Below, piece after piece: positions 1 to 30,183 of a stretch of DNA of 32,000 nucleotides (positions are counted from its first letter, which is position 1; each line of letters starts with the position of its first letter). Where the stretch lies: assembly GCA_021770755.1 (NCBI GenBank), contig JAETQI010000021.1, positions 29,379 through 61,378 of the forward strand, written 5' to 3'. Position numbers and translations under genes: made by a program. The stretch comes from Lachnospiraceae bacterium (GTDB lineage: Bacteria > Bacillota > Clostridia > Lachnospirales > Lachnospiraceae). The notes beneath the pieces are model-generated. The model saw nothing but the letters and a program-made list of their open reading frames with translations. It searched no databases and was not told the DNA's origin.

Positions 1-1758
1 AGAAAGTCCTTGTCCTATGGGGTGTGCTCCGAACATGTCCTTCAGGAACTGGAATCAGACCGCTATGCATCGGATGGATTGATGCTGGATATCCTTCTGC
101 AGCGTCTGGGACAATCCCCCGATAAGTTTGAGATGGTATTAGGCAGCAAACTGTTCAATATGATCCGACTGCGTGATCTGATCGAAGAAGCTGTTTACCG
201 CGGGAAAAGAAAACTGGCAGAACTGCTGCTGCAAAATTATCCGTCACGTACCCATGTCGATGAGATGTATCATCACCGCATGGAGGCATTTCTCATTTAT
301 CACATGGACGGAAACTGCGCGCTCGCGGCAGAACACCTGCACAGATCCATTATCCGCACGCTTCCTGCGTATTCTTATGAACACTTTTATGACCAGATGG
401 AACGCTATCTTCTTTCCACCGTGGAGCTGGAAAACCTGCTCGCCCTCGAACGGATGCATCTTGAAGCGGATCCCGGGGTCAGCTCGATCTTGCCGGTCTC
501 GAAACACCATCTCGAACGCTGTATGAATTATATTGAAAACCATTTCAGTGATGACGAGGAGCGTGCAAAGCTTATCAGCAAATGCGCATGGCTGACCGCA
601 AGGATCTGTTATCTGGAAAAAGACTATATGCAGGCTATTGTTTCCTGCAAAAAGGGTGTGGCACAACTGCGGAAAAATACGATCCTGTATTTTATGCTGC
701 CTCTGCTGGAACTGATGGTGCGATCAGAGACGGCACTTGGCATCGCACCGGATCGGAGCAAATGGGTACAATATTATGATATATTGACCTTCTTATGGAA
801 AGGGTATACCCCAAAGTGGTATCCGACAGACGCATTGCTTCACAATTGCTGTCAGAGGGACTATCATCTGGATCATGAGCTGATCCGGTCCGAGCGGGAA
901 TCAAAACGTATGACACAGGCACAGCTTGCAGCCGATATCTATCAGAACACGGAATCCCTCTCGCGTGTAGAGACCGGAACAGTAGCTCCGAACAATAAGA
1001 CCTTTGAGAAGATCATGGATAAGCTGGGACTGGAAAAGCGCAGATACAACGGGTGTGTTATCACCAGATCCTTTGAGGTGATGGAGCTGAAACGTAGTAT
1101 CGACGGTTTTCTGATGCGCCGGAATTATCAACAGGCAAGGGAGGCAACTGACAGACTGAAAAGCGCCCTTGATATGGAAATATCAGAAAACCAAATGGTC
1201 GTCAGCCTCTATGAAATTCTCACAGCGAAAGCTCTTGATGAAATGACATCAGCGGAAGCTCTTGAACAGTTAAAAAAATTGTCGGGAAGATTTATGCGGT
1301 TTGAAGAGAAAACTTTCTCACATATTCCTATGAGAAACGAGGTTCTGGTCATCAATAATATCTGTATTTCCCTATGCGGAACCGGACGCTGGGACGAGGC
1401 AGTTGATCTATATCGGATCGCATTAGAAAAAATAAGAAGCAGTAAGGTCGACGTAAAATACAGATACCGCTCTTATCAGCTCCTATACAATAATTATATA
1501 CATGAACACCAGGGCAAAGATATCGTGGAAGCGCTTGAGGAATTGCAGTTGGAATTCCTGTGTGGGAAGGCTATGACACTCCCCCTTTGTATCGATAACA
1601 TTTTACAAATATTGATCAGAAATGATGTTCCCATAAAAGACTGTGATGAGTGGATAAAAGCAGTATATTATATATGTGACTTGTTTTACTTCGAAAAAGA
1701 TAAGCAGATATATAAACAATTTCTTGAAAATAGTCGTTCTATAGAACTTATAGATTAG
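1..1758 (+). CDS. XRE-type HTH + TPR-like transcriptional regulator (RNPP/Rgg-like) with two HTH-repeat modules in one frame; 5' partial
   Basis: The frame is open from position 1 (aga aag tcc ttg...), so the listed TTG at 10 is not the true start. The N-terminus is the tail of HTH-1 (GVCSEHVLQELESDRYASDGLMLDILLQRLGQSPDKFE). A complete second HTH sits at aa ~300-345 (MTQAQLAADIYQNTESLSRVETGTVAPNNKTFEKIMDKLG, ATG at 910). Each HTH is followed by ~230-250 aa of helical-repeat sequence. Stop TAG at 1756-1758. Confidence 0.7.
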   Translation, partial: RKSLSYGVCSEHVLQELESDRYASDGLMLDILLQRLGQSPDKFEMVLGSKLFNMIRLRDLIEEAVYRGKRKLAELLLQNYPSRTHVDEMYHHRMEAFLIYHMDGNCALAAEHLHRSIIRTLPAYSYEHFYDQMERYLLSTVELENLLALERMHLEADPGVSSILPVSKHHLERCMNYIENHFSDDEERAKLISKCAWLTARICYLEKDYMQAIVSCKKGVAQLRKNTILYFMLPLLELMVRSETALGIAPDRSKWVQYYDILTFLWKGYTPKWYPTDALLHNCCQRDYHLDHELIRSERESKRMTQAQLAADIYQNTESLSRVETGTVAPNNKTFEKIMDKLGLEKRRYNGCVITRSFEVMELKRSIDGFLMRRNYQQAREATDRLKSALDMEISENQMVVSLYEILTAKALDEMTSAEALEQLKKLSGRFMRFEEKTFSHIPMRNEVLVINNICISLCGTGRWDEAVDLYRIALEKIRSSKVDVKYRYRSYQLLYNNYIHEHQGKDIVEALEELQLEFLCGKAMTLPLCIDNILQILIRNDVPIKDCDEWIKAVYYICDLFYFEKDKQIYKQFLENSRSIELID

Positions 1759-1760
1759 TA

Positions 1761-1832
1761 CTCCATCCAGTTAGAAATCAGAGTATGGTGCGAAACAGAC
1801 AGTCACAGACTCCAATTTCTAACCGGAGGGAG
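1761..1832. terminator. Long imperfect hairpin between convergent genes (possible bidirectional terminator)
   Basis: Left arm tccagttagaaatcagagt (1766-1784) pairs with actccaatttctaaccgga (1809-1827): 19 positions with 3 mismatches. It extends through ctcc/ggag-type pairs. No clear U-tract on either strand. Confidence 0.35.
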
Positions 1833-1834
1833 TA

Positions 1835-2005
1835 TTAGTATCCACTTTCAATTGAAGGAAAACTCGGACATTCTTCACTGCATACTGATATAGCATTTTT
1901 ATCCTGACTTCTTTCCAGACTTACTTTATATCCAGATGCAGAAACGACTACTGCCATAAGAGTTGAGAATAAAATTGTTTGTACGATTGTTTTTACTTTT
2001 TTCAT
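1835..2005 (-). CDS. Small secreted peptide (56 aa) with Sec-type signal peptide; candidate propeptide pheromone
   Basis: Below the ORF-track cutoff. ATG at 2005-2003, TAA at 1837-1835. My translation: MKKVKTIVQTILFSTLMAVVVSASGYKVSLERSQDKNAISVCSEECPSFPSIESGY. It has a basic n-region, a hydrophobic h-region and a VSA/SG cleavage-like site. AAAGGAA lies ~9 nt upstream of the ATG, and a TATAAT (minus strand, 2070-2065) lies further upstream. Confidence 0.5.
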   Translation of the reverse strand: MKKVKTIVQTILFSTLMAVVVSASGYKVSLERSQDKNAISVCSEECPSFPSIESGY

Positions 2006-2084
2006 AATACCTGTTCCTTTCTATGATATTTTGCAGTACAGTTGGTGCCATAATATTCTTGTCTATTATACAGGAAGCTCCCAT

Positions 2085-2149
2085 AAAGTACATGACTTTT
2101 TGCATATAATAAAAAAGAATTTTTTTGTATGTAAGAAGTCATGTACTTT
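2085..2149. promoter_or_regulatory. Perfect 14-bp inverted repeat in the divergent promoter region (candidate operator or activator site)
   Basis: aaagtacatgactt (2085-2098) is the exact reverse complement of aagtcatgtacttt (2136-2149). The 37-nt AT-rich spacer contains TATAAT (2105-2110). The right arm is followed by T7. Confidence 0.5.
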
Positions 2150-2229
2150 TTTTGATATCAGTGTATCATATGGATTATCCGGAATGAGGCATGCATTAGA
2201 CCGGAAATAATCAGAGAGGAGGTAAGCAT

Positions 2230-2313
2230 ATGAAAATCGTTTGTAAACCAGTAAAAGTAAAGGTAAATTCCCACGAAGAAGGTCCTTTATGCTGCAACGG
2301 CGTACAATTCTAA
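2230..2313 (+). CDS. Candidate RiPP precursor peptide (27 aa)
   Basis: Below the ORF-track cutoff. ATG 2230, TAA 2311-2313. My translation: MKIVCKPVKVKVNSHEEGPLCCNGVQF. A strong SD (gagaggaggt) ends 6 nt before the ATG. The gene lies 77 nt upstream of, and co-directional with, the radical-SAM/SPASM gene. Confidence 0.65.
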   Translation: MKIVCKPVKVKVNSHEEGPLCCNGVQF

Positions 2314-2327
2314 CATCGTAACTTACA

Positions 2328-2372
2328 GATCAAGCAGGAGACCTTGACCATGTCAAAGCCTTCTGCTTGATC
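2328..2372 (+). promoter_or_regulatory. Intercistronic stem-loop between precursor and maturase genes (candidate attenuator or stabiliser)
   Basis: gatcaagcag (2328-2337) pairs with ctgcttgatc (2363-2372). The stem extends about 3 more pairs including one G-U. The loop is ~20 nt and there is no U-tract. Confidence 0.5.
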
Positions 2373-2390
2373 AATTGAATAGGAGGTCAA

Positions 2391-3575
2391 ATGAAAGAAT
2401 CAATATTTAATTACCACTTCTTAATAAATAATAAGGAATACATTTTCAACACGAACAATGGCGGTTTGATAGAAATAAATCCCAATGGTTTTACTGATGA
2501 AGAAAAAAAGATTTTAAGTGAAAACCGCTTTTGGGTCGAGGATCAGTACGACGAAGTCTGCGAACTGGAAAAAGAAATAAATGAAAATATTCAACAAGGT
2601 AGTGAAGATCTAACGCTCACGCTCGCCCTGACATATCAATGCAATTTTCATTGCGTATATTGTTTTGAAGATAAGAATGACAAGGTCATGGAAAAAGAAA
2701 CAGCACAGGAAATCATTGAAAAAGTCGCGCAGATATTGTCCGAACATAAGTATAACAGATTAAGAATACATTATTACGGTGGCGAGCCTCTCTTAAATTT
2801 AGATGTATTGCTTTATTTTCATGAGAGGTTCAAAATAATTTCCGAAAATACAGGAATTCCATACAAACCATGTCTTACTACAAATGGATCCATGCTGACA
2901 AATGAATTGATTTCTTCCTTGAATTTTGATACAATACAATTAACATTCGATGGCTTAGCAAAAACACATAACAGCCTTAGAGTTTCAGATATATTTCGCT
3001 TTGACGAACAGGTACAATTGCTGGGGAGGATTCTGGAACATTCTGATACTCAGATACGATTCCGTGTCAATCTATGCCGGCAGAATAGAATTGAAGTCAT
3101 GGAATTATATCATTATATTACAGAAAAATACGGAAAGAAAAGAATCTTATTTATTCCAAACAGAATGATAAAATTCCATGAAGAAGATCAGTTTGACATG
3201 CTTAGTATAAAAGAATATTCAGATGCGTTATTAGAAATAAAGGATGCACTGTCTGATGAGTATAAGCTTCCAACTCCGGAAAGAACCCCTTGCAGTTTTG
3301 TGTGCAGAAATGCATTTTCAATTGATACAGACGGGAACTGCGATTTTTGCGAGACAACGAAGGAAAAGAAGAGTTACAAATTCAAAGATATTGATGTGCG
3401 TAAAAAGAGAGCAATCCACTTTCGGGAGGAATGCAGAAACTGCAAGTGTCTTCCAATCTGTCTGGGAGGCTGTGTCGTTCAATATAACCTCAATGCAGGC
3501 TCCTGTACTTATGAGAAATATCATATGGAGCATATCATAACGAAGTATCTCCAATCCGTCAATACCAATTCATGA
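2391..3575 (+). CDS. Radical SAM/SPASM-domain peptide maturase
   Basis: CX3CX2C cluster motif (YQCNFHCVYCFE), a GGEPLL motif, and a Cys-rich C-terminal SPASM-type region (CSFVC...CDFC...CRNCKCLPICLGGC...C). An ~85-aa N-terminal extension sits before the cluster motif, where RiPP recognition elements usually lie. AGGAGGT sits just upstream of the ATG. Confidence 0.9.
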   Translation: MKESIFNYHFLINNKEYIFNTNNGGLIEINPNGFTDEEKKILSENRFWVEDQYDEVCELEKEINENIQQGSEDLTLTLALTYQCNFHCVYCFEDKNDKVMEKETAQEIIEKVAQILSEHKYNRLRIHYYGGEPLLNLDVLLYFHERFKIISENTGIPYKPCLTTNGSMLTNELISSLNFDTIQLTFDGLAKTHNSLRVSDIFRFDEQVQLLGRILEHSDTQIRFRVNLCRQNRIEVMELYHYITEKYGKKRILFIPNRMIKFHEEDQFDMLSIKEYSDALLEIKDALSDEYKLPTPERTPCSFVCRNAFSIDTDGNCDFCETTKEKKSYKFKDIDVRKKRAIHFREECRNCKCLPICLGGCVVQYNLNAGSCTYEKYHMEHIITKYLQSVNTNS

Positions 3576-3597
3576 TAAGGAGTCCAAAATGAAAACA
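3553..3597 (+). repeat. 45-nt direct repeat, copy A (3' end of rSAM gene + RBS + first 3 codons of ABC gene)
   Basis: aatccgtcaataccaattcatgataaggagtccaaaatgaaaaca matches 8761-8805 at 42 of 45 positions. Confidence 0.9.
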
Positions 3598-5163
3598 AAA
3601 GTGCTGAAAAAATACCCCATCCAGGTTCTGATGATGACAGTCACGTTTCTGATCACGATGACGCTGCCCGTGCTGATGAGCTACCTGATCGACAATATTC
3701 TGGAATCAGGCGATATGCATACGCTGGTCCGGTGGTTTGCGGTCACATTCGGCGTGTCGGTCGTGGGATATCTGTTCAAATTCTATTTCTGTGAATATAC
3801 TCCCGTAAAACTGGGCATCAAAAATACATTTCAGCTACAGAAAAAATCCGCTTCGGATATCCTTAGGATGAATCAGTCCTTATATACGCAGAAGGACAAA
3901 GGATATTATTACAATGTCTGCTCCAATAGCTGCGCTTCTTACGGCGACCTGCATGAAGAGACCCGTCTGAGAATGATAAGCTGTCTGCTCTATATTTTTA
4001 GTATCCTTGCCGTTATTACCTGCGTGGATACCTTTTTTGGCATCTTTTTTCTGATCTACGGGGCAATTCTTGTCGTGATCTCCCTCAACAGCTCCAAGCC
4101 GCTCTATGCGATGCAAAAAGTAGTTTTGCCCACGCAGGATAAATATCTCAGCGGGATACGCAATATCATTGAGAACAAGGCTGGGATCAATGCCCTCCAT
4201 ACAGAGGATTACTTCGAACAAGAGTACACAAAATGTGTGGGAAATTACGAAAAATTTGTTCTAAGATATCGTTTCTTTGAATATTTCTGCAGTTATCTTC
4301 CCAGTATCATCAACCAGATATTTGGCGTGGCGTATCTGTTTATTGCCGCCGTGCTTGTATTTAAGGGAAATATCACCGCCGGCGTGCTGCTGATGGGATA
4401 TCAGTACCTTGGTTATTTCTCCAACCCGATCTCAACCGTGTGCGGTATCCTGATGCGCTACCGGTCAAACAAAATACATATTGAGCGAGTCGACGAGCTG
4501 ACGCTGGACGCAGAGAAGCCAGACGAGCTGACAGCGTATCGTACGGAGGAGGATACCATTTTTACAGCCAATGATTTTGATTTCTACAAGGGGAACCAGC
4601 CGGAAGATTTCCTGTATCACATTCAGCATATGGAACTGCAAAAAAACGGTCTGTATGTGATCAAAGGTGAAAACGGGAGCGGCAAAAGCATGCTGATGAA
4701 CCTGATCCTTGGAAATATCACACCCCGGAACTGCACCGGAAATTTCAGTGTATCAAAGGATACCGGCAATACTACATTTTTGACCTATCCTATTTTCACA
4801 GTTGACGGAAGCTTCGAGGATAATCTATACGAAAAACCTAAGATAGAGCACCTGATCAAAATGCTGGGCATTGATTTTGAAGAGAAAGAGATCACAAGCA
4901 ACCCGATCAACTTAAGCTACGGACAGCAGCAGAAGCTTGCCCTGTACAGGGTATTTGCGTCGGACACACCGGTCTTCTTTCTGGATGAACCGCTGTCCAA
5001 TCTGGATATCGAAACACAGGAAAAGGTTCTGGCATATATCAGGCATCTGAAAGGTACCAAAACGCTGCTTGTCGTCATGCACAGCAGCGAATTGGACGAC
5101 GCGGCGGATGATATCATACTGATCAAGGATCATCAGGCGACCATGATGAAGACAGGTGCGTAA
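3589..5163 (+). CDS. ABC transporter, fused permease/ATP-binding half-transporter
   Basis: Hydrophobic N-terminal half. Walker A GENGSGKS, signature-like LSYGQQQK, Walker B VFFLDEPLSNLD. No N-terminal C39 peptidase domain. Only a 13-nt gap after the rSAM gene. Confidence 0.9.
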   Translation: MKTKVLKKYPIQVLMMTVTFLITMTLPVLMSYLIDNILESGDMHTLVRWFAVTFGVSVVGYLFKFYFCEYTPVKLGIKNTFQLQKKSASDILRMNQSLYTQKDKGYYYNVCSNSCASYGDLHEETRLRMISCLLYIFSILAVITCVDTFFGIFFLIYGAILVVISLNSSKPLYAMQKVVLPTQDKYLSGIRNIIENKAGINALHTEDYFEQEYTKCVGNYEKFVLRYRFFEYFCSYLPSIINQIFGVAYLFIAAVLVFKGNITAGVLLMGYQYLGYFSNPISTVCGILMRYRSNKIHIERVDELTLDAEKPDELTAYRTEEDTIFTANDFDFYKGNQPEDFLYHIQHMELQKNGLYVIKGENGSGKSMLMNLILGNITPRNCTGNFSVSKDTGNTTFLTYPIFTVDGSFEDNLYEKPKIEHLIKMLGIDFEEKEITSNPINLSYGQQQKLALYRVFASDTPVFFLDEPLSNLDIETQEKVLAYIRHLKGTKTLLVVMHSSELDDAADDIILIKDHQATMMKTGA

Positions 5164-5188
5164 GGAACTCTGAAAAATAACGGAGAGG

Positions 5189-7228
5189 ATGGAGGTAAAA
5201 CAGTTGAATCTTCAGGAGGAAAAGGAACATTTACTTGTTGGTCTCAAAGCTTTGCAGGCTACGGCAGAAAAGCTGTTGAAAAAGGTGATGCACTACTCTG
5301 AAAATTACCGCGATTCTGCAAGATATGTCTGGGAGAGCCAGAGTGAATTTGATGAATACGAAGCGATCTTTAACCGGCTGCTGATCGACCAGGTAGTCGA
5401 TTCGGGGGAACAGACGAAAGAAAGGCTGCATCAGATCATCAAAATGATGGACTCTCCGTATTTTGCACGGATCGATTTTTTGATGGAAGAGGATCCGGAA
5501 CCCATGAAGGTTTACATTGGAAAATTTTCTTTCTGGGACGATAATGGTGAGTTCGAAGTATTTGACTGGCGTGCACCGATCTCCGGAATGTATTATGAGT
5601 ACGGATACGGAAATGCCCATTATGATGCACCGATGGGAAGGATCGAAGGGCAACTGGTCTGCAAGCGGCAGTACAAAATCAGCCGCGGAAATCTGGAGTA
5701 TGCGCTGGAGAGTGGTATCGGCATCAGTGACGAGATCTTACAGCAGGAGCTTGCAAAGAATGCGGATCATAAGATGGCAGATATCGTTGCCACGATCCAG
5801 AAGGAGCAGAATAAACTGATCCGGGATCTTTCATCAGATACACTGATCATTCATGGTGTTGCAGGTTCCGGCAAGACCTCTATCGCACTGCATCGGATCG
5901 CCTATTTTTTATACAAATATAAAGGTCAGATCACATCAAAGAATTTCCTGATCATCTCGCCAAACGGCGTTTTTGTCGATTATATTGCAGACGTCCTTCC
6001 AGAACTTGGCGAGGAGAATGTCAGATGCATTGCCATGGATGATATCGCGGAAAAAATTCTGGGAAAAGAATACCACTGCGAAAGAATGAATCTGCAGGCA
6101 GAACGGTATTTGCAAAGAGCCGAGGATACCGACTGGAAGAACAGAAACCAGTTTAAAAACTCTGTAGAATTTTTAAAACGATTAGATGATTATCTGCTGA
6201 AATGTGATAAAGAGAATTTTCAAGAAGAAGATTACCACTATGAGGGCGACATGGTCGAAGCTGCATATCTGCGAAAATGTTACGATATCAGGAAAGCACT
6301 GCCCGTAAGGGAACGGTTTCAGGAAATTGCCGCGCTGATATCCAGGGACATTCGGGAAGTTCACAGGAATGATCTGTTCGAGTGGCTGATGGAACGGTAT
6401 GACAGAAATCATGTACTGCAGCTATACCGGGATTTTTACGAAGATCTCGGTATGCCCGATTTTTTTCATTATGCGGAGGGCATGGAAATCGAAAGCTCGG
6501 ATGTTTTCCCGCTCGTATATGTGAAAATGTATCTGGAAGGTTTTATACGGGAACCGGAGATCAAGTACCTGATCATTGATGAAATGCAGGATTATTCACC
6601 GATCCAATATGCCGTCATCAATAAACTTTACAAGTGCAGAAAAACGATTCTCGGCGACTTCTGTCAGAATGTCGTTCCTTTTACAGGAAACCATTTTGAC
6701 TTTTTCCATCAGATGTATGCAAATGCGCAATTCATAGAAATTCATAAAAGCTATCGTTCCACTTATGAGATCATGAGCTATGCCGGGAAAATCAAAAAGG
6801 ATCAAAAACTTGATCCCATTGAACGGCATGGCAGTGAACCCTCTGAGGTCTCATTTGAGAGTCGCATGGACGAGGAAGCTTATCTGATCAGTGCAGTCAA
6901 ACGTGCACAGGCGGACAAGAAAAACGGCAAACTGGGCATTATCTGCAAAAGCCACCCGCAAGCGGAATCCTTGTTCCACACATTGTCTGGTGCTGGTGAT
7001 GTTCATCTGTTTACTTATGATACAGATGTGTTTTACAGTGGTGTGATCGTGACATCCGTATCACTTTCAAAAGGACTGGAATTTGACGAGGTCCTGATCG
7101 TGGACGCCGACCAGCAAAACTATTGTACACAATATGACCGCAATCTGCTTTATGTAGCGTGCACGCGGGCAATGCATCGTTTAAAGCTGCTTTATTGCGG
7201 AAAAAAGAGCAGATTTCTGGAAGGATAA
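5189..7228 (+). CDS. helD: HelD-type (helicase IV-like) UvrD/Rep superfamily-1 ATPase
   Basis: N-terminal coiled-coil-like segment, then YFARIDF...YIGK...DWRAPISGMYY. Walker A GVAGSGKTS, IIDEMQDYSP, KSYRST, and C-terminal SLSKGLEFDEVLIVDAD...LLYVACTRAMHRL. The start could instead be TTG 5204, which has better spacing to GGAGGT. Confidence 0.85.
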   Translation: MEVKQLNLQEEKEHLLVGLKALQATAEKLLKKVMHYSENYRDSARYVWESQSEFDEYEAIFNRLLIDQVVDSGEQTKERLHQIIKMMDSPYFARIDFLMEEDPEPMKVYIGKFSFWDDNGEFEVFDWRAPISGMYYEYGYGNAHYDAPMGRIEGQLVCKRQYKISRGNLEYALESGIGISDEILQQELAKNADHKMADIVATIQKEQNKLIRDLSSDTLIIHGVAGSGKTSIALHRIAYFLYKYKGQITSKNFLIISPNGVFVDYIADVLPELGEENVRCIAMDDIAEKILGKEYHCERMNLQAERYLQRAEDTDWKNRNQFKNSVEFLKRLDDYLLKCDKENFQEEDYHYEGDMVEAAYLRKCYDIRKALPVRERFQEIAALISRDIREVHRNDLFEWLMERYDRNHVLQLYRDFYEDLGMPDFFHYAEGMEIESSDVFPLVYVKMYLEGFIREPEIKYLIIDEMQDYSPIQYAVINKLYKCRKTILGDFCQNVVPFTGNHFDFFHQMYANAQFIEIHKSYRSTYEIMSYAGKIKKDQKLDPIERHGSEPSEVSFESRMDEEAYLISAVKRAQADKKNGKLGIICKSHPQAESLFHTLSGAGDVHLFTYDTDVFYSGVIVTSVSLSKGLEFDEVLIVDADQQNYCTQYDRNLLYVACTRAMHRLKLLYCGKKSRFLEG

Positions 7229-7239
7229 AGGAGGTATTC

Positions 7240-8742
7240 ATGAATAAAAATCGCAGATTACTGCAGCAATATCTTATAGAAAATATCGGGCTGGTCATTG
7301 CTTTGCTGACGCTTTCCATATTGATCAGTGTACTGAGTCTGACAGTGCCCTGGTTTATGCAGTATTTCACCGATACGGTCGTCATCGGCGGCGCGTGGGA
7401 ACATACAGGCACCGTGATCATCGCTTTTCTCGTCATCATCTTACTGCGGTTTGCGATCGATCTGATGTATGAACGGCTGATGGCTTATCTGGTTTTTCAA
7501 AAGATTACCTTGTCTCTCAGACAAAGAGTTGAGCATATCCTGATCTATATGAAATGCAGATACCTGTATAAAAAGAAAGAAGAGATCGCTGAGAAGGACA
7601 TTGAAACAATTCTGCTTGGAGATGTGGATGCTTTCAAAAATGTCTTGTCCCAGACGATCAAATTTTTTACAGAGGTGCTGAAACTGATCGTATACCTCTT
7701 TGTCCTGCTTTACTATTCGTTGCCTGTCGGGCTGATAGTATGCGCAAGAATCCCCGTCTATTATATTGTTTCCAATTTATATGACCGCCCACTGTCCACG
7801 CGAAGCGAGAAAAACCGGGCAGTCCAGTCAAAGCTGATCCAGAAGGTTAAGAAAATCTTTCAATCCCTGCCTGCCATCAAGACCTTTCAGATGGAATCGC
7901 GCGTTGAACAGGATCTGGATGGACAGGTGACAGACTATTGCAGGAATCAGGGAAAGATATCCATGCTCAACGCCGGATATCAGGAACTCAATACAGCGAT
8001 CAATACCCTGCTGAATGTCCTGGTTCTTGTACTGTGCGGCAGGGCGATCCTGCAGGGCAATATGACGCTTGGTACGATGATGCTGATCTCCAATATTCAG
8101 TCGCGAACGACCATGCCGCTATTTTTTTTCAACAATTACTATCTGCAGTATAAGAGCAGCTTTCCCGGAATATCCCGTCTGGTACGTTTTCTGGAGACAG
8201 AAACCGAAACTGCCGCATCCTGTCCTAATAAACCACACTTTGAGACACTGTCTCTGAGGAATGTGAGTTATTCGTATGTGGAGGGGCAATGTGCGCTGGA
8301 GAACTTTTCACTGGAGATCCGATCCGGCGATAAACTGATCCTGACAGGCGACAATATGGCTGGGAAGAGCACCCTTTTAAAATTGTTGGCGGGACTGCTG
8401 ACAGCCGACAAAGGGCAGATATTCATAGACGGAAAAGTATCCACGGATCATGAACTGCGAAATCTTGCGACACTTTTTCTTCAAAATCAAGACAGCTACT
8501 GCTATTTTGATCAGGAAGGTTCTGGCGGAGAAGTGCAGCTCATGAACCTGTCCATGATGCGTGATGTATCAAGCCCGCTGATCCTGCTGGATGAAGCGGA
8601 TGCAAGCATCAACCACAGCCGCCTGGATGAAGTCTATCAGTTTCTGGATTCCGATGCGACTGTCATCCTGGTCACCCACAGGAATACCGGGCACATTTTG
8701 CAAAAATACCCTAATGCGAGACTGATGCATATGAAAGCGTAA
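7240..8742 (+). CDS. ABC transporter, fused permease/ATP-binding half-transporter (second subunit)
   Basis: I chose the internal ATG 7240 (MNKNRRLLQQYL...), which follows AAGGAGG and lies 11 nt after the helD stop. Walker A GDNMAGKS, degenerate signature GSGGEVQ, Walker B ILLDEADASIN. The listed start at 7159 overlaps helD. Confidence 0.85.
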   Translation: MNKNRRLLQQYLIENIGLVIALLTLSILISVLSLTVPWFMQYFTDTVVIGGAWEHTGTVIIAFLVIILLRFAIDLMYERLMAYLVFQKITLSLRQRVEHILIYMKCRYLYKKKEEIAEKDIETILLGDVDAFKNVLSQTIKFFTEVLKLIVYLFVLLYYSLPVGLIVCARIPVYYIVSNLYDRPLSTRSEKNRAVQSKLIQKVKKIFQSLPAIKTFQMESRVEQDLDGQVTDYCRNQGKISMLNAGYQELNTAINTLLNVLVLVLCGRAILQGNMTLGTMMLISNIQSRTTMPLFFFNNYYLQYKSSFPGISRLVRFLETETETAASCPNKPHFETLSLRNVSYSYVEGQCALENFSLEIRSGDKLILTGDNMAGKSTLLKLLAGLLTADKGQIFIDGKVSTDHELRNLATLFLQNQDSYCYFDQEGSGGEVQLMNLSMMRDVSSPLILLDEADASINHSRLDEVYQFLDSDATVILVTHRNTGHILQKYPNARLMHMKA

Positions 8743-8760
8743 ATGTAACGCGGAATCGCA

Positions 8761-8805
8761 AATCCGTCAATACTGATTTATGATAAGGAGTCCAAAATGA
8801 AAACA
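8761..8805 (+). repeat. 45-nt direct repeat, copy B
   Basis: aatccgtcaatactgatttatgataaggagtccaaaatgaaaaca duplicates the rSAM-tail/RBS/ATG-AAA-ACA junction of 3553-3597, 19 nt after the second ABC gene stop. Confidence 0.9.
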
Positions 8806-8806
8806 A

Positions 8807-8932
8807 TTGGACGATATTGCAGACGGCGTTATACAGATCAAAGATCAGCAGGCGTCCATCATAAAAACTAAATGTAAATATAATACCTTTCAGTGCAAAC
8901 TGGCATGTTCCTCTGAGTGCCTGTGTTCGTAA
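8807..8932 (+). CDS. Cys-rich 41-codon frame (possible second RiPP precursor, or a frameshifted relic of one)
   Basis: My translation from TTG 8807: LDDIADGVIQIKDQQASIIKTKCKYNTFQCKLACSSECLCS, stop TAA 8930-8932. It is in the +1 frame relative to the duplicated ATG at 8797. That ATG frame gives only MKTIGRYCRRRYTDQRSAGVHHKN (stop at 8869-8871). The SD (8785-8790) is ~16 nt from the TTG, which is poor spacing. Confidence 0.4.
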   Translation: MDDIADGVIQIKDQQASIIKTKCKYNTFQCKLACSSECLCS

Positions 8933-8937
8933 AAGGA

Positions 8938-9924
8938 TCACAGCATCGAAGCCCGCAGCTCCTCCGCGCTCTTTGCACTCAGATACGACGGTGCGATGTC
9001 AAACACGGTCCTGCACCCGCTCTGCCCTTCCCCTGCCAGACGATGAGCCGCCCTCGCATAAGCGACGAGCACGCTCGCCGTGAATTCCGGATTGGAATCA
9101 AGCTTTAAGCTGTATTCGATCAGATGCCGGTTCTCCTTCTCCCAGCCGGTCACGCCGCTCCGCAGCACGAAACCGCCGTGCGGGATCCCGCTGTGATTGG
9201 CGAGAAGCTCCTCCTCGCTGATAAAGTGAACCGTCGTGTCGTAATCTGCAAAATAGTTCGGCATGGTCTTGATCTCCTCCTCGACCTTCGCCGCATCTGC
9301 CCCTTCCTCGAGCACAACGAAGCACTCGCGCGTATGCTTCTGCCTCGTCGTCAGCTCCGGGTTGCTGCCAGAACGCGCCGCCTCCAGCGCGGATTCGACA
9401 GGGATCGTGTACTGCTTCGCATTTCTGACGCCCTCGATCCGGCGGATCGCGTCAGAATGCCCCTGGCTGACACCTTTTCCCCAGAATGTATAGTCCTTTC
9501 CTTCCGGCAGGATCGCGTTCGCATACAGACGGTTCAGCGAAAACATACCCGGATCCCAGCCCACGGAAATGATCCCGATATGCGCATTCTCCTTTGCTGC
9601 CGCGTCCACCTTTGCGAAATGCTCGGGGATCTTTGCGTGCGTGTCAAAGCTGTCGACCACGTTAAAATACTTCACATACGCCGGCGTCTGTTCCGGCAGG
9701 TCTGTGGCGCTGCCGCCGCAGATGATCATCACGTCGATCCGGTCCTTCCACGCTGCCGCGTCCGATACCTTGCAGACTTTCGCCGTGTCCGTCAGGATCG
9801 ATACAGACGACGGATCCCTGCGCGTAAACACTGCCGCCAGCTCCATATCATCATTTTGTCTGACCGCGCACTCCACGCCGCGCCCCAGATTGCCATATCC
9901 TAAGATTCCTACCCGTGTACTCAT
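8938..9924 (-). CDS. ddh: meso-diaminopimelate D-dehydrogenase
   Basis: MSTRVGILGYGNLGRGVE..., GWDPGMFS, WGKGVSQGHSDAIRRI, MPHGGF and LDSNPEFTAS closely follow the Ddh sequence as I remember it from Corynebacterium. I chose the start at ATG 9924 after GGAGGAG; the listed 9969 start is an extension. Confidence 0.9.
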   Translation of the reverse strand: MSTRVGILGYGNLGRGVECAVRQNDDMELAAVFTRRDPSSVSILTDTAKVCKVSDAAAWKDRIDVMIICGGSATDLPEQTPAYVKYFNVVDSFDTHAKIPEHFAKVDAAAKENAHIGIISVGWDPGMFSLNRLYANAILPEGKDYTFWGKGVSQGHSDAIRRIEGVRNAKQYTIPVESALEAARSGSNPELTTRQKHTRECFVVLEEGADAAKVEEEIKTMPNYFADYDTTVHFISEEELLANHSGIPHGGFVLRSGVTGWEKENRHLIEYSLKLDSNPEFTASVLVAYARAAHRLAGEGQSGCRTVFDIAPSYLSAKSAEELRASML

Positions 9925-10075
9925 TTTTGTTCTCCTCCATGTTTTTAGTCGTTTTAGCTGCCCGTTCATATCACCTTGTCAGCAGTTCCCCCTGGTCTGT
10001 AACTCATATCTGTTCCCACTCTCTCTTTAATAACCGATATTCCAACCGCGTCTTCATCTTTCCATCATGCCATTC

Positions 10076-13366: not shown

Positions 13367-13678
13367 CTATGAACTGCGCCCCGAAAAAATCTTTGTAATA
13401 TCCTGATACCGATTCACCACCCGATAAATCTCAACTGCCTCTTTAAAAGCCTTATACATCACAACATAATCATTCCAAACCACATACTTATAATCTGTCT
13501 TAAAGCTCACACGTTTAGACAAATCTGCGCCAATATAAGGAAACTGCTGTATATTTTCAAACTGCTTATAAATCTCCTGAACTGTTTCTGATGCTTTATC
13601 AGCATTATCTTCTGCAATAAAATTTTTGATAGCTTTTAAATCTTCTGCAACTACTGGATTGATTCGCAATCTCACCAT
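13367..13678 (-). CDS. Type II toxin, ParE/RelE family
   Basis: About 103 aa, starting MVRLRINPVVAEDLKAIKNFIAEDN...YRVVNRYQD. It lies 4 nt downstream of the antitoxin stop, and a GGAGAG RBS sits inside the antitoxin's end. Confidence 0.8.
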   Translation of the reverse strand: MVRLRINPVVAEDLKAIKNFIAEDNADKASETVQEIYKQFENIQQFPYIGADLSKRVSFKTDYKYVVWNDYVVMYKAFKEAVEIYRVVNRYQDITKIFSGRSS

Positions 13679-13682
13679 AAAT

Positions 13683-13931
13683 TTACTCTCCAACTTTCGC
13701 TTTCAATTCATCCATTGTAAGCCATCCATTTCCGTCCTTGACAGCTTCCTCTGCCTCATGCAGTTTCTCCAACAGCTTTTTTTCTGCTTTTTCACGCTCG
13801 TAATCTTCTATATCCATTACCACAAATCTTCCTCTGCCATTTTTCGTCAGAAACACAGGCTCTCCAATCTGACAGTTTTTCAAAACCTCATTATAATTTC
13901 TTAAATCCGATACCGGTAATATACTTGCCAT
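13683..13931 (-). CDS. Type II antitoxin, Phd/YefM family
   Basis: 82 aa. MASILPVSDLRNYNEVLKNCQIGEPVFLTKNGRGRFVVMDIEDYE is the characteristic Phd/YefM N-terminal fold sequence. The C-terminal tail is acidic. Confidence 0.8.
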   Translation of the reverse strand: MASILPVSDLRNYNEVLKNCQIGEPVFLTKNGRGRFVVMDIEDYEREKAEKKLLEKLHEAEEAVKDGNGWLTMDELKAKVGE

Positions 13932-15575: not shown

Positions 15576-17153
15576 TTAACAAAAGCACTCGATCACACAC
15601 GAATGCTCCTTCGTCTTTTTATCATAATCAATTTCCACCAACAGCATCTTCCCTGCATAATCTTTCAGCGACTCGGGATACTGTTTCTTCCTGATCTGTG
15701 CGATCGCCGCCTCCGCGCTTTTGTCCCATTTCAGCTCCACCACGATCACGGGGCGGTTGGAGTGGTTTGCGCGGGGCAGATAAATAATGTCCGCAAATCC
15801 TTTCCCAGCGGGAAATTCCCGAATCGGTCTGTGATAATAAGAAAACGCTGCGATCAGCGCGATCATGACTGTGCAGGAGAGCGAATTTTCGTCATTGTAT
15901 TCGATACTGGACGTAAAATCATTATGCACACCCTGGATCAGTCTGGCAGTCCGCTCCCCGTCGCCTGCTATGACTGCCTCCAGAATCTCTTCGGAGAGCT
16001 TCATGAACTGTGCCATTCCGTCGTTTTTACTCCTTTTGACGGATTTGTAAAATACGGCATGGATCTCTTTGTTTGGTATATATGCCTCCTGTGTGTCCTC
16101 ATCGTAGGCGCAGTACCCCAGATGGATCAGCGCCGTGATCACCTGCTCCTTGTCCTCAAAGGTCTGCAGGTCATTGATGCCGTTATCCACCTCCACCGGT
16201 ATCCTGTTCCCTGAGAGCATCCTGATGATATCCTCCCGGAGTCCGTCAAAATTTTTGCAGATCAGGTCGTCGATATCCCCGTAAGTGCCCGTGACCGTCC
16301 AGTACTGCTGAAACCGTTTTGCGGAGACCGCACGAACGACGGACAGCGGATTGTACATCGCTGTTCCACCCAGATTGTATCCATTGTACCACTCTTTCAT
16401 CTGTTCAAAATCCACACCAGATCTCTCACAGAGCAAAAAGACTTCCTCCTCTGTAAATCCGATATCCTTTGCCAGATCCATCGGATTTATCATCGTATAC
16501 TCCATGAAATTATTGACGGCGGACTGTCCCTTCGTCCGCACGATCGGCATGATTCCCGTCAGATATGCCAATCGGATATATGATTTGGCAGCGTTGTTCT
16601 TGAACAATCCGCGCAGCATCTCGATATACGACAGTCTGTCAGTGTTACCCTTATCCAGTTCCCGTATGGGATAGTCCCACTCGTCAAAAATAATGACAAA
16701 ACGGCTCCCTGTCTCATGATAAATTTCGGACACCGCATTCATCAACGCCGTCTCTCCAGACACAATATCAGGATAGTCTTCCTGAAGTTCTTTCACAATC
16801 TTTCTGCTGATATAGCCGACCGGTTCCTCGTTCTCAAACTGTGCCGCCTTAAACTGTGCCTGGATATCCACAAAGATCGTGTCATATGCATTCATACTCT
16901 CGAGAAACAACGCATCTTTCATACACTTGAGCGGCTCAAACAGGCTCCTCGAATCCACCCCTTTGCTAAAATACGCGACAAGCATATCCGCCGTGACTGA
17001 CTTCCCGAACCGGCGCGCCCTGCTGTTACAGACAAATTTTTCCGTGATATCCTTTTTCAGCAGTTTGTTGATCAGCTCCGACTTGTCTACAAAATATTGC
17101 GTCTGGGAAAATTCCGCATAATTTTTATTTCCAATGTTTAAAAAAAGTCCCAT
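15576..17153 (-). CDS. AAA-ATPase-like (PF09820-type) + PD-(D/E)XK nuclease-like (PF08011-type) protein, paralogue 1
   Basis: N-terminus YFVDKSELINKLL...CNSRARRFGKSVTADMLVAYF is the predicted-AAA-ATPase signature. C-terminus GKGFADIIYLP...PVIVVELKWDKSAEAAIAQIRKKQY is a PD-(D/E)XK-like D...ELK motif. GGGAGGA RBS. Confidence 0.85.
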   Translation of the reverse strand: MGLFLNIGNKNYAEFSQTQYFVDKSELINKLLKKDITEKFVCNSRARRFGKSVTADMLVAYFSKGVDSRSLFEPLKCMKDALFLESMNAYDTIFVDIQAQFKAAQFENEEPVGYISRKIVKELQEDYPDIVSGETALMNAVSEIYHETGSRFVIIFDEWDYPIRELDKGNTDRLSYIEMLRGLFKNNAAKSYIRLAYLTGIMPIVRTKGQSAVNNFMEYTMINPMDLAKDIGFTEEEVFLLCERSGVDFEQMKEWYNGYNLGGTAMYNPLSVVRAVSAKRFQQYWTVTGTYGDIDDLICKNFDGLREDIIRMLSGNRIPVEVDNGINDLQTFEDKEQVITALIHLGYCAYDEDTQEAYIPNKEIHAVFYKSVKRSKNDGMAQFMKLSEEILEAVIAGDGERTARLIQGVHNDFTSSIEYNDENSLSCTVMIALIAAFSYYHRPIREFPAGKGFADIIYLPRANHSNRPVIVVELKWDKSAEAAIAQIRKKQYPESLKDYAGKMLLVEIDYDKKTKEHSCVIECFC

Positions 17154-18262: not shown

Positions 18263-18436
18263 TATTTCCTCTGCACGGGTCTGTTGCAATCGAGTAGTGG
18301 TATGTCCTTCTCCACTACTCGACGCGCCGGGCACCCGTCAGCGCATGCTGACACTCTTCCTCTGGGTGCCCATGTGCGATCGAGCCTGCGCGACCCGGGC
18401 GCCGCTCTAGCGGCATATTTCCTCTGCACGGGTCTG
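18263..18436. repeat. 132-nt GC-rich insert (18284-18415) bounded by perfect 21-nt direct repeats
   Basis: tatttcctctgcacgggtctg occurs at 18263-18283 and again at 18416-18436. The insert carries repeat-element copy 2 (core 18287-18377). Confidence 0.8.
18287..18377. repeat. GC-rich two-hairpin intergenic repeat element, copy 2 (inverted relative to copy 1)
   Basis: Its reverse complement reads gcacatgggcacccagaggaagagtgtcagcatgcgctgacgggtgcccggcgcgtcgagtagtggagaaggacataccactactcgattg. Hairpin 1 is conserved. Hairpin 2 has a different sequence but is still self-complementary (gagtagtgg/ccactactc). Confidence 0.75.
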
Positions 18437-21655: not shown

Positions 21656-21732
21656 TTTGATCCATTCCACCTTCCCGTTTGTCTTGTATTCATTGTATCA
21701 CGACAAGGAGCGCACACCAATACCAAATTAGC

Positions 21733-22747: not shown

Positions 22748-23668
22748 CTAAAATTGGAAAAACTCATAGTCCAAAGTTTCCGGTCTCCGATACTCCCCTG
22801 TACTGAAATCATGAATGAGGATCTGATGCGGCTCTTCCAGCGAGATCCAGATATGATACCCCGCCTCTTCTATATCCCCATGCATGACGATCGTATAGCC
22901 GAGCTTCCAGTATCCCGGATCGTCGCCCGACAGAAAGGTCACGCCATACTCAATCCCCTCCATTCCGTCAACGATCCGCAGCCCCTGGACCGGACTTAAC
23001 AGCACCTTCTCCCTGTCCCAGCCCGGATTGACGCGCGTGTAGATCTCATCCTCCAGCTCGCTCAGCAGGCCGATATGGTCATTATTCCAGTCATATATCC
23101 TGAAATTGTCGTAATCCGAACCGACGATATAGAGCACCTTTCCCTTCATATCCGGTATCGTGATAGAAAAATCCTGCTGCTCCTTCCCAAACGGCAATGT
23201 CTCCGCCGCATAGACAAACAAGTCGACGCGGGCGCCGACGCTCGGATTCTCCTTCCACTCCACATGGCTGATGCGATATCCTGCATACGACATAGAACCC
23301 TTTACCGTGAGGCTGTCCGTCTCCTCATCGTACTCGGCGCTGGAAATCATCACTGCCCCCTGTTCCAGCAGGCTTCCCGCGACATAAACCTTGAGAAAGA
23401 CGCCGATGACAAGCGCTGCCAGCAGCAATCCCCCCAGTGCGGCAGCCGCCCTGAGATACCGGGTGCGGCTGCGTATTTTTTTAAATCCATCAAGGACAGC
23501 CCGCTCCTCGGGCGTGGACCGGTCCGCCATATCCTCCTTCATTTCCGTAAAAATACGCCTGCACTCCCCACAGCCCTCCAGATGCTCCCTCACAGCACTG
23601 CTGCCCGCCTCGCTGATCACGCCGTCGATATATCCCGGCATCAGATCCCTGACAATATCACAATTCAT
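22748..23668 (-). CDS. Anti-sigma factor (zf-HC2 type) with one TM segment and an extracytoplasmic domain
   Basis: Start chosen at ATG 23668 (MNCDIVRDLMPGYIDGVISEAGSSAVREHLEGCGECRRIF), giving an H-x3-C-x2-C zinc motif. A TM segment (AAALGGLLLAALVIGVFL) follows. It overlaps the sigma gene end by 11 nt. Confidence 0.8.
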   Translation of the reverse strand: MNCDIVRDLMPGYIDGVISEAGSSAVREHLEGCGECRRIFTEMKEDMADRSTPEERAVLDGFKKIRSRTRYLRAAAALGGLLLAALVIGVFLKVYVAGSLLEQGAVMISSAEYDEETDSLTVKGSMSYAGYRISHVEWKENPSVGARVDLFVYAAETLPFGKEQQDFSITIPDMKGKVLYIVGSDYDNFRIYDWNNDHIGLLSELEDEIYTRVNPGWDREKVLLSPVQGLRIVDGMEGIEYGVTFLSGDDPGYWKLGYTIVMHGDIEEAGYHIWISLEEPHQILIHDFSTGEYRRPETLDYEFFQF

Positions 23669-28718: not shown

Positions 28719-28731
28719 TGTTTTTGATCTC

Positions 28732-30168: not shown

Positions 30169-30183
30169 AAGTTTGTCTTTCCT

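Follow-up and report, generated by a model that had tools for sequence, protein, structure and literature searches.

We analysed 32,000 nucleotides (nt) of DNA from a Lachnospiraceae bacterium (hereafter, the window), focusing on a locus that occupies approximately positions 1-8742. We estimate, with a probability of roughly 0.75, that positions 1-5163 are a self-contained, pheromone-controlled system for production of a radical S-adenosylmethionine (SAM) RiPP (ribosomally synthesised and post-translationally modified peptide), belonging to an unnamed family. Three features of the locus are unusual: the CCNG precursor and maturase family, a single-chain receptor built from two PlcR-like modules, and a tail consisting of a HelD gene and a second ABC exporter gene (ABC2). 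For comparison, we used about 35 related loci, each referred to by an L number. Note that a scan of genome contigs with the maturase found only two close loci, and one of metagenome contigs with the ACGX-like maturase of L013 likewise gave two. The elements of the locus are listed below, with functions as predicted.

1-1758, + strand: regulator, C-terminal 582-583 amino acids (aa) of a 605-aa protein with two tandem helix-turn-helix (HTH) plus tetratricopeptide repeat (TPR), PlcR-like, modules; open reading frame (ORF) open to the window edge
1835-2005, - strand: propeptide, 56 aa, MKKVKTIVQTILFSTLMAVVVSAS followed by G…VCSEECPSFPSIESGY; candidate secreted pheromone precursor
2065-2070, - strand: putative propeptide promoter -10-like box, TATAAT, 14 nt from the left operator arm
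2085-2149, no strand assigned: candidate operator, inverted repeat of AAAGTACATGACTTTTTGCATA (2085-2106) and TATGTAAGAAGTCATGTACTTT (2128-2149), 20 of 22 positions complementary
2164-2169, + strand: putative precursor operon promoter -10-like box, TATCAT, 14 nt from the right operator arm and the mirror image of 2065-2070
2230-2313, + strand: RiPP precursor, 27 aa, MKIVCKPVKVKVNSHEEGPLCCNGVQF; conserved with its Shine-Dalgarno (SD) sequence in homologous loci
2328-2372, + strand: stable hairpin between precursor and maturase genes, 21-nt arms, 86% complementary
2391-3575, + strand: peptide maturase of the radical-SAM/SPASM class, 394 aa, whose N-terminal domain resembles a RiPP recognition element (RRE); from Pfam, motifs and an AlphaFold2 (AF2) model
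3589-5163, + strand: ABC1, half-transporter with transmembrane domain (TMD) and nucleotide-binding domain, 524 aa, no peptidase domain; Pfam ABC_membrane and ABC_tran
5189-7228, + strand: class I HelD (RNA polymerase recycling and protection ATPase), 679 aa; scores 494 bits with NF041464 HelD_BACSU (cut-off 419)
7240-8742, + strand: ABC2, second ABC exporter half-transporter, 500 aa, from Pfam; seen only directly after HelD
8761-8868, + strand: recombination scar, in which a copy of the 3' end of the radical-SAM gene, with the ribosome-binding site (RBS) and beginning of ABC1, runs directly into the final ~64 nt of ABC1

The gene order is regulator, propeptide (- strand), precursor, maturase, ABC1, HelD and ABC2. 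All coordinates, gaps and motifs given in an initial annotation of this DNA were found again in the ORF map and the sequence. The 27-aa ORF at 2230-2313 has a strong SD and lies 77 nt before the next gene. The latter, at 2391-3575, encodes the CX3CX2C and GGEPLL motifs and a SPASM-type Cys cluster. An ABC, HelD, ABC series comes next in the same orientation; the gaps are 13 nt (maturase to ABC1), 25 nt (ABC1 to HelD) and 11 nt (HelD to ABC2). The HTH-TPR regulator and convergent signal-peptide ORF described upstream are also both present, but the regulator has two HTH plus TPR modules rather than one. Similarly, the end given for the region, at 8932, is no real boundary. ABC2 stops at 8742 and positions 8743-8937 are an intergenic segment containing the scar. 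Beyond this is a diaminopimelate dehydrogenase (DAPDH) gene (8938-9969, - strand), then genes for methionyl-tRNA synthetase (MetRS) and a HAD hydrolase. Because these genes adjoin it, the locus is chromosomal. In the plasmid collection, there was no DNA match to 1800-8800, and all protein matches to the maturase were at most 27% identical.

The evidence from homologous loci indicates that the 27-aa ORF represents a genuine precursor family and not a chance ORF. Its SD, GAGAGGAGG, is 7 nt 5' of the ATG. Both ORF and SD are kept in eight loci, where maturases are 34-94% identical to that of the window; a core of CCNG or C-x-x-G form accompanies maturases of 36-94% identity. We read the DNA 5' of the maturase gene in each distinct context. 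Everywhere except L032, which is at a contig end, a small ORF with an SD was found, stopping 70-90 nt ahead of the maturase gene. The initial annotation had set beforehand, as a possible refutation, that no small ORF be conserved beside maturase homologues; we looked for one and found it. The homologous precursors are as follows, with the identity of the accompanying maturase to that of the window.

L010: MKIVCKPVKVKVNSHEDGPLCCNGVQF; maturase 94% identical
L001: MKIIFDPIREKKNNRSGDSLCCNGIVM (…SLCCNGIVM); maturase 75% identical
L007: MKIIFNPVNEKKNVRLNDILCCNGIVF (…ILCCNGIVF); maturase 76% identical
L003: MKIISKPKKIKVHSSAEIKCKIGII (variant …IKCKIGII); maturase 52% identical
L021: MRIISAPINKGDVISTTQCCNGVSVGGTTR; maturase 50% identical
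L030: MKIISEPISKESVISTAQCCNGATIFATR (…AQCCNGATIFATR); maturase 50% identical
L023: …ELESRGNCCNGLQIC (…RGNCCNGLQIC); maturase 36% identical, in a locus with two radical-SAM genes and major facilitator superfamily (MFS) pumps

Members of the precursor family are 25-30 aa long and share two conserved parts, M[KR]II..P at the N-terminus and CCNG[VIAL] at the C-terminus. The CCNG core is still present beside a maturase of only 36% identity, in a precursor with an unrelated leader (L023). Relative to L010, an 88%-identical locus, the window precursor carries four synonymous changes and one non-synonymous change, which points to coding constraint on the ORF. MKI(I/V)..P is a candidate recognition sequence and CCNG(V/I/A/L) a candidate core. 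The CCNG motif is absent from the 16 streptococcal radical-SAM RiPP motifs listed in PMC13361665, and literature searches for CCNG together with radical SAM returned nothing relevant.

The hairpin at 2328-2372, behind the precursor gene, has a folding energy of -26.7 kcal/mol (z = -4.7). A hairpin is also found at this point in L003, L007, L013, L021 and L030, although with unrelated sequence; the three that were folded have z values of -4.2 to -6.8. It is structure, and not sequence, that is conserved across loci, and T-runs occur in some copies. The hairpin may be an attenuator, or may stabilise the transcript. A hairpin after the precursor gene, which keeps precursor mRNA above enzyme mRNA, is a common arrangement. 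By analogy, the hairpin in the window would fit this precursor-excess arrangement.

The maturase has the radical-SAM motifs C84-x3-C88-x2-C91 and G130-GEPLL (G130-G131-E132-P133-L134), which are invariant in 30 homologues. The SPASM pattern is complete: C-x9-G-x4-C, C-x2-C-x5-C-x3-C and one further C downstream. Across the same homologues, C301, C320, C348, C351 and C357 are invariant, with C361 and C372 nearly so. Pfam detects Radical_SAM (E 1.4e-10) and Fer4_12. The best NCBIfam matches are maturases of Cys-rich-peptide RiPPs (TIGR04463, CefB, Clo7bot, geopeptide, FlmE/OhkG, PapB and SCIFF), none of which reaches its cut-off (TIGR04463, 112 of 525 bits; CefB, 108 of 600; Clo7bot, 106 of 600; PapB, 70 of 340). 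Scores for other named families, including WgkB, GggC-associated, ryptide and RumMC, are likewise below NCBIfam cut-offs. The nearest solved sequence is CteB (5wgg/5why). An AF2 model, made with 30 homologues (pLDDT 91), also had CteB (5why/5wgg) as the top Foldseek match, followed by the anaerobic sulfatase-maturating enzyme (anSME), TigE, SuiB, SkfB and ChlB. In the model, a three-strand/helix domain of RRE type is N-terminal to the radical-SAM barrel. The clade is rare; an exhaustive search of 1.84 billion representatives yielded only 35 that reach E<=1e-30, and a word-indexed search found 23 maturase clusters above ~30% identity.

These motifs, the nearest models and structures, and conservation of CCNG bear out the proposal of the initial annotation that this is a radical-SAM RiPP locus with a conserved precursor. 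Its view that the maturase matches no named family also stands, given that all NCBIfam matches are sub-cut-off and CCNG is outside the streptococcal set. By analogy with CteB and the other nearest enzymes, the product is most likely an intramolecular thioether formed from a conserved Cys. Indeed, the SPASM maturases that make thioethers (CteB/SCIFF, the PapB ranthipeptides, NxxcB with its beta-thioether, TIGR04463 and CefB) have in common with this enzyme the radical-SAM core, a full set of SPASM Cys residues, an RRE-like domain and a Cys-containing core peptide. They differ in that the window maturase scores 65-112 bits, against cut-offs of 340-600, and its precursor has 25-30 aa with one or two Cys residues. 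In the most distant CCNG-type loci, L023 (6663-11666) and L032 (162-3996), the maturase is paired with a second radical-SAM gene of 350-375 aa. In L023, two MFS pumps replace the ABC exporter, and no tandem regulator was seen.

ABC1 follows the maturase, with 40-91% identity, in all CCNG loci that have an ABC exporter (L001, L003, L007, L010, L020, L030 and L032). The exporters are not of the C39, peptidase-containing ABC transporter (PCAT), type. In both ABC1 and ABC2, the TMD begins at residues 16-20 with no peptidase match, and alignments to PCAT models start past the peptidase region. Hence, as previously proposed, Pfam indicates no C39 or other protease at the locus. Conversely, the earlier description of the two ABC proteins and the embedded HelD as one export module does not hold; the conserved system has ABC1 only, and HelD-ABC2 is separable (see below).

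We turn now to control of the locus. The N-terminal 22-23 aa of the regulator are outside the window. Full-length regulators, in L024, L013, L007, L003, L021 and L030, have 596-609 aa. The family contains at least 142 clusters, of 591-641 aa, and every named member is from Lachnospiraceae, to which the tandem-PlcR family appears restricted. Pfam detects HTH_3 at aa 292-341 and, weakly, TPR_1. The AF2 model (pLDDT 88, pTM 0.88) consists of an HTH, helical repeats, a further HTH and further helical repeats. The top Foldseek matches are PlcR with PapR (2qfc), the PlcR-PapR7-DNA complex (3u3w) and apo PlcR; ComR is also among the matches. Note that these relatives were identified by fold, since a sequence search of solved structures returned only designed pentatricopeptide repeat proteins and the HTH of EDF1. 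The two halves of the regulator are homologous, with residues 8-103 aligning to 8-104 of the second half (hhalign 87%, E 4e-6). Because both halves align in profile-profile comparison, we conclude, from sequence and predicted fold, that the regulator is a tandem duplication of a PlcR-like module in a single chain. All-helical repeats follow each HTH and the top fold match is PlcR, in line with the HTH and TPR-type peptide-binding domain of RRNPP transcription factors. We suggest that the protein is RRNPP-like in its working without being a standard member.

The propeptide ORF is conserved. In every locus, an ORF of 40-56 aa lies between the regulator gene and the precursor operon; place, orientation and N-terminal signal are shared by L003, L007, L010, L013, L021, L029 and L031, and the C-terminus is variable. 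By inspection, the N-terminus has, in all loci, a Lys-rich n-region, a hydrophobic h-region and a c-region of A/S-x-A/S type, suggestive of export by Sec. There was no Pfam or NCBIfam match. The ORF is at most 77 nt from the receptor stop codon, in line with the adjacent propeptide of 10-100 aa expected for RRNPP systems. A 59-aa ORF (1926-2105, - strand), chosen by the gene caller in L024-27, was rejected; it overlaps the operator and is not a conserved frame, while the 56-aa ORF is conserved. Within the strain group at the DAPDH site, regulators are 73-82% identical and propeptides 48-61% identical, with flanking core genes 98.5% identical at the nucleotide level. Such co-divergence of regulator and propeptide sequences is the pattern expected for diverging pherotypes.

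A common region of 224 nt lies between the propeptide gene and the precursor operon, which point away from each other. This contains the candidate operator, which extends to a 51-nt inverted repeat (2064-2114 and 2120-2170), with the propeptide -10-like box in the outer part. Neither promoter has a -35 consensus; an operator arm is in each -35 place. A promoter consensus scan around the operator found nothing above shuffled background. This lack of a consensus signal is expected for an activator-dependent promoter. A palindrome is in the same place in every locus. The sequence is the same where regulators are 73-82% identical (L007, L013) and differs in L003 (ATTGTACATAACTTTTCGCTTTAA, regulator 47% identical) and in L021 and L030 (…CCAAAAC.CGAACT, regulator ~23% identical). 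Together, these patterns suggest activator-dependent, bidirectional and autoinducing control, and the locus is very probably controlled by peptide quorum sensing. The quorum regulation proposed in the initial annotation is thus supported, but not the Rgg/SHP type. For the latter, an Rgg of ~285 aa and a peptide of ~20-25 aa without a Sec signal are expected. Here, the receptor is a 605-aa tandem PlcR-like protein and the propeptide has 56 aa with a signal-peptide-like N-terminus.

The five core parts (regulator, propeptide, precursor, maturase and ABC1; window 1-5163) recur together in three unrelated chromosomal contexts, listed below. All five are also present, with other neighbours, in L030/31.

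Beside DAPDH: window, L024, L007-9, L001
Beside a toxin-antitoxin pair and a TPR gene: L003-6
Beside AraC-family and PALP genes: L020-22

HelD and ABC2, on the other hand, are confined to the strain group at the DAPDH site. Five arrangements of the genes behind the propeptide gene are found there, as follows; in each description, pre27 and pre48 are the 27-aa and 48-aa precursors, and rSAM394 and rSAM444 the 394-aa and 444-aa radical-SAM proteins.

Type A (window, L024, L010/11): pre27, rSAM394, ABC1, HelD, ABC2
Type B (L007-9, L001/2): pre27, rSAM394, ABC1
Type C (L013/14): pre48, ACGX-like rSAM444, HelD, ABC2, ABC3
Type D (L029): as type C without ABC3
Type E and decayed: L015/16, with ABC2 split by an insertion; L037, with the regulator fused to the C-terminus of rSAM444

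HelD is present in types A, C, D and E. It is absent from type B, as is ABC2, and both are missing from all distant CCNG loci. The HelD-ABC2 pair is 79-91% identical in L010, L013, L029 and L037, and ABC2 is the sole ABC gene in L029. In L013 (7423-8976) and L029 (9615-11166), a different cassette stands behind the same regulator, propeptide, operator and promoter. It encodes the 48-aa precursor MSNVKKIMDRYNSFRVSKNESNDKKDSLKNSKLIAHSGSGSSFAHCYG and an ACGX-like radical-SAM/SPASM protein (TIGR04340, 249 bits against a cut-off of 400), with HelD-ABC2 directly after.

Comparison of these types delimits the modules. Nucleotide homology between the window and types C and D (L013, L029) stops at 2194-2220, before the precursor RBS, and resumes at 5191; the homology break between locus types is at the start of HelD (5191). 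Type B locus L007, of a conspecific strain, lacks 5163-8935 and has flanks 98.5% identical at the nucleotide level. Within the scar, 8761-8806 is 93% identical to window 3553-3598, the junction between the end of the radical-SAM gene and the start of ABC1, and 8805-8868 corresponds to the 3' end of ABC1 as it stands in L010 and L007. Judged from these matches, the scar between ABC2 and DAPDH is an almost wholly deleted second copy of the radical-SAM gene and ABC1. The scar therefore indicates that HelD-ABC2 entered what had been a type B junction. Third-codon-position GC content (GC3) is 0.36-0.58 for island genes (HelD, 0.50; ABC2, 0.56) and 0.71-0.76 for DAPDH, HAD and MetRS. Outside the island, the closest HelD has 55-56% identity and is encoded by a solitary gene. 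Given these borders, the absence from a conspecific strain, the scar, GC3 and the distance to outside HelD proteins, the comparative evidence is that HelD-ABC2 is an accessory, mobile and secondarily inserted module, neither housekeeping nor part of the conserved CCNG system. An ancestral housekeeping HelD gene at this site is judged unlikely on the same grounds of GC3, conspecific absence and scar.

The pair is nevertheless always in line in the pheromone-controlled operon, with no space for its own promoter. All five genes from the precursor to ABC2 are likely on one transcript, because gaps of 25 nt and 11 nt are too short for a promoter and the two genes overlap in L010. Between 2391 and 8742, a promoter and terminator consensus scan found no convincing internal promoter or terminator.

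Two sets of side observations concern recombination at this site. In L015 (3141-5162) and L016, an inserted GNAT acetyltransferase gene splits ABC2, leaving HelD and ABC3 intact. In L001, DAPDH fragments lie on both sides of the RiPP cassette (729-895, 4350-4424 and 5839-5999), which suggests repeated recombination, and a 404-aa ORF (4563-5777) takes the place of HelD-ABC2.

The protein at 5189-7228 is assigned to class I HelD, with similarity over the N-terminal arm and the 1A/2A ATPase domains. The NF041464 score exceeds its cut-off, the match to B. subtilis HelD in the RNA polymerase complex (6wvk chain H) has E 1e-98, and Walker A (GVAGSGKT) and Walker B (IIDEMQD) motifs can be read from the sequence. 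We rejected a role for HelD and the ATPases in defence against phages, since PADLOC gave only weak, generic UvrD-type GajB matches, at 55 bits or less, compared to 494 for HelD. The 55-56% identical HelD genes are near HSP70/DnaJ-like genes in other genera, and L007 has HSP70/DnaJ/GrpE upstream. Protection of RNA polymerase against rifamycins is known for class I HelD of B. subtilis, via its N-terminal domain, and for HelR of actinobacteria (PMC12802891; bioRxiv 10.1101/2021.05.10.443488). The helD paralogues are common, and horizontally transferred, among gut Clostridia (PMC8655204). Furthermore, HelD and transporters are both in rifampicin-response regulons (PMC12802891). In the literature searched, we found no description of HelD in a pheromone-controlled RiPP operon, or of HelD/HelR in gene clusters.

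How well does a pheromone-controlled RiPP system account for positions 1-5163? Several observations weigh against it. The L003 precursor (KCKIG) has no second Cys and no Asn; because these residues are not universal, the acceptor residue that is modified cannot be named. The Pfam SPASM model, PF13186, does not match the maturase at E<=0.01. The hairpin in the window has no T-run, and a terminator scan makes no call. Both promoter boxes match the consensus only weakly. At 605 aa, the receptor exceeds the RRNPP length criterion of 250-500 aa (validated range 285-473 aa, PMC10075063), a consequence of tandem duplication. Finally, a maturase frameshift is common to two independent metagenome-assembled genomes (L001/2; L001 1414-2591), and L025-27 have an in-frame deletion of 115 aa (aa 232-344) from the maturase, in strains otherwise 99-100% identical to the window. 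Since the maturase is degraded in several natural copies, the product is dispensable. A different view is that the maturase is an anaerobic sulfatase-type or cofactor maturase, and that the 27-aa ORF arose by chance. While anSME is the second-best structural match, and there are weak matches to TIGR03942 and MoaA models, the top matches by sequence and by structure are peptide maturases. In addition, the ORF, SD and CCNG motif are kept beside homologues down to 36% identity (L023), and neither a sulfatase nor a cofactor-pathway gene is nearby. We consider this view scarcely credible. It is also conceivable that the 56-aa signal-peptide ORF is no pheromone, but a secreted bacteriocin, an immunity or membrane peptide, or a second substrate, with the regulator sensing something else. 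The atypical length of the receptor could be taken this way, as could conserved Cys and acidic residues at the C-terminus in the window group (VC[SC][EQ]EC), which might suggest a structured or modified peptide. However, the Cys residues are missing in L021 and L031, where a signal peptide and short tail remain, and a Sec signal would be unusual for the substrate of a cytoplasmic radical-SAM enzyme. The size, signal peptide, PlcR-fold neighbour, divergent shared promoter and fast co-divergence instead fit the RRNPP signature (PMC10075063). Hence, we regard a function other than that of a pheromone as decidedly unlikely, and retain the pheromone-controlled RiPP system as our reading of positions 1-5163.

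The role of HelD-ABC2 is less clear-cut, and two explanations deserve consideration. The pair could be a passenger, that is, a mobile general stress or rifamycin-type tolerance pair that settled behind the RiPP operon and is read through by accident, functionally unconnected with the peptide. It can be separated from the CCNG core, most CCNG loci lack it, and the scar shows secondary insertion. Horizontal movement of helD paralogues in gut Clostridia (PMC8655204), and the rifampicin-response regulons that contain HelD and transporters (PMC12802891), are in keeping with this. It is harder to reconcile with the homology break at the HelD start codon, with gaps of 24-25 nt or an overlap, and no evident HelD promoter, in three arrangements. 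Moreover, ABC2 is the sole exporter of the RiPP operon in L029, and the pair was never outside the operon among loci retrieved. We view accidental read-through as possible, short of probable. Alternatively, the pair could confer self-protection on the island. Here, RNA polymerase would be the enzyme inhibited by the pre48/ACGX-like peptide, and perhaps by that of the CCNG family as well; HelD would free it from the peptide, ABC2 would pump the peptide out, and the window would keep the pair for immunity or cross-immunity. HelD-ABC2 is always directly behind a RiPP gene, without room for its own promoter, whether after ABC1 (window, L010) or rSAM444 (L013, L029). The L029 operon has just the precursor, maturase, HelD and ABC2, making the pre48/ACGX-like product the most natural candidate. 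The pair also stays intact when biosynthesis decays, as in L037, which has lost the regulator, propeptide and precursor along with half of rSAM444, and in L025-27, with the maturase deletion. Loss of production with downstream genes kept is common in bacteriocin-like loci, so such decay would fit an immunity role by analogy, without proof. Island-like GC3, conspecific absence and the flanking scar argue against a housekeeping gene. The nearest outside HelD is only 55-56% identical and stand-alone. HelD and HelR are established target-protection factors of RNA polymerase (PMC12802891; bioRxiv 10.1101/2021.05.10.443488). Even so, CCNG loci of other taxa, and of one conspecific strain, do without HelD. 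The same HelD-ABC2 is behind two unrelated cassettes, and would be specific to both only if both target RNA polymerase. All HelD-linked loci found are from one chromosomal site in one Lachnospiraceae group, essentially one evolutionary event, and in L015/16 ABC2 is split by the acetyltransferase gene. It also counts against self-protection that we know of no radical-SAM RiPP that targets RNA polymerase. Overall, we consider self-protection rather unlikely. The specific proposal that island peptides inhibit RNA polymerase, with HelD as the producer's target-protection immunity factor and ABC2 providing efflux, is likewise unlikely.

Taking the pheromone-controlled system as our working model, we envisage the following. 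Sec would export the 56-aa propeptide, which would then be trimmed extracellularly. Part of it, probably derived from the variable C-terminal region, would be re-imported and bind the 605-aa regulator. The latter, a covalent pseudo-dimer of two PlcR-like modules, would bind both arms of 2085-2149. Since an arm occupies the -35 place of each mirror-image promoter, binding would activate both the propeptide gene, giving positive feedback, and the precursor operon. The 27-aa precursor would be made in excess, with the hairpin at 2328-2372 limiting read-through or stabilising a short transcript. The maturase would recognise MKI(I/V)..P through its RRE-like domain and modify the CCNG core. The product would then leave the cell through an ABC1 homodimer; there is no gene for a dedicated leader protease. 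HelD-ABC2 (5189-8742) would be transcribed from the precursor operon promoter as a separable accessory module.

Quorum-sensing-controlled radical-SAM RiPPs are well studied in streptococci. The streptococcal operons (streptide, tryglysin, streptosactin, NxxC; 16 motif-named subfamilies; PMC13361665, PMC8092268) follow the same logic, in which a cytoplasmic peptide-sensing HTH regulator and a small adjacent pheromone gene control a precursor, a radical-SAM/SPASM enzyme and a transporter. A dedicated protease is often absent from them, as here. They differ in host (Streptococcus rather than Lachnospiraceae), in regulator (Rgg of ~285 aa, instead of a 605-aa tandem receptor) and in signal (short SHP, as opposed to a 40-56-aa propeptide). 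PlcR-PapR, an RRNPP system of the Bacillus cereus group, is alike in its HTH plus TPR-like repeats, palindromic target and adjacent propeptide. The PapR propeptide is Sec-exported, and the one here has a signal-peptide-like N-terminus. PlcR is a homodimer, while each chain of the regulator described here has two PlcR-like modules; sequence identity to PlcR is only 13-15%. The PlcR box is 16 bp; the operator arms here are ~22 bp, with variable spacing. Unlike in PlcR-PapR, the propeptide gene is convergent to the receptor gene and divergent from the target operon. Of the HelD/HelR factors (B. subtilis HelD, HelR of Streptomyces and M. abscessus), the protein of the window belongs without question to class I HelD, but its gene lies within a RiPP operon under pheromone control and forms a pair with an ABC exporter gene. 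Literature searches for Lachnospiraceae radical-SAM RiPPs with quorum sensing returned nothing relevant, and no existing description of the system was found in the plasmid collection, defence models or searchable literature.

The remainder of the window contains the following further genes.

13367-13693: ParE-family toxin gene, GC3 0.33, just beyond MetRS
15576-17153, 18407-20014 and 20066-21670, - strand: three paralogous AAA-ATPase_like plus PDDEXK_9 genes, 525-535 aa, near-tandem; between the first two are genes for a 139-aa protein and a 230-aa ICMT/PEMT-like methyltransferase
22748-24173: overlapping ORFs of 171 aa and 331 aa, a putative extracytoplasmic function sigma factor and anti-sigma factor, proposed from sequence alone
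26466-27581: 371-aa protein, the first 110 residues extremely rich in Ser, Arg, Pro and Gly, followed by a transmembrane segment; one weak, sub-threshold Pfam match
27558-31863: low-GC glycan-modification block with a cytidylyltransferase-HAD fusion, a polysaccharide pyruvyl transferase and an MptE-like/nucleotide-sugar transferase protein

The locus carries the streptococcal-style scheme of quorum-controlled radical-SAM RiPP production to abundant gut Lachnospiraceae. Double-PlcR, single-chain receptors of the kind described here are missed by standard RRNPP searches, which apply a 250-500-aa filter. If HelD does have an immunity role, this would be the first HelD-type RNA polymerase 'plunger' used in RiPP self-immunity, and its product the first radical-SAM RiPP to target RNA polymerase. 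Immunity of this sort would name RNA polymerase as the target, and 'HelD beside a biosynthetic gene' would become a handle for resistance-guided mining of transcription inhibitors. Finally, precursor and maturase units are exchanged between a constant pheromone switch and a constant HelD-ABC2 tail, providing a natural model for bacteriocin-like diversification within a species.

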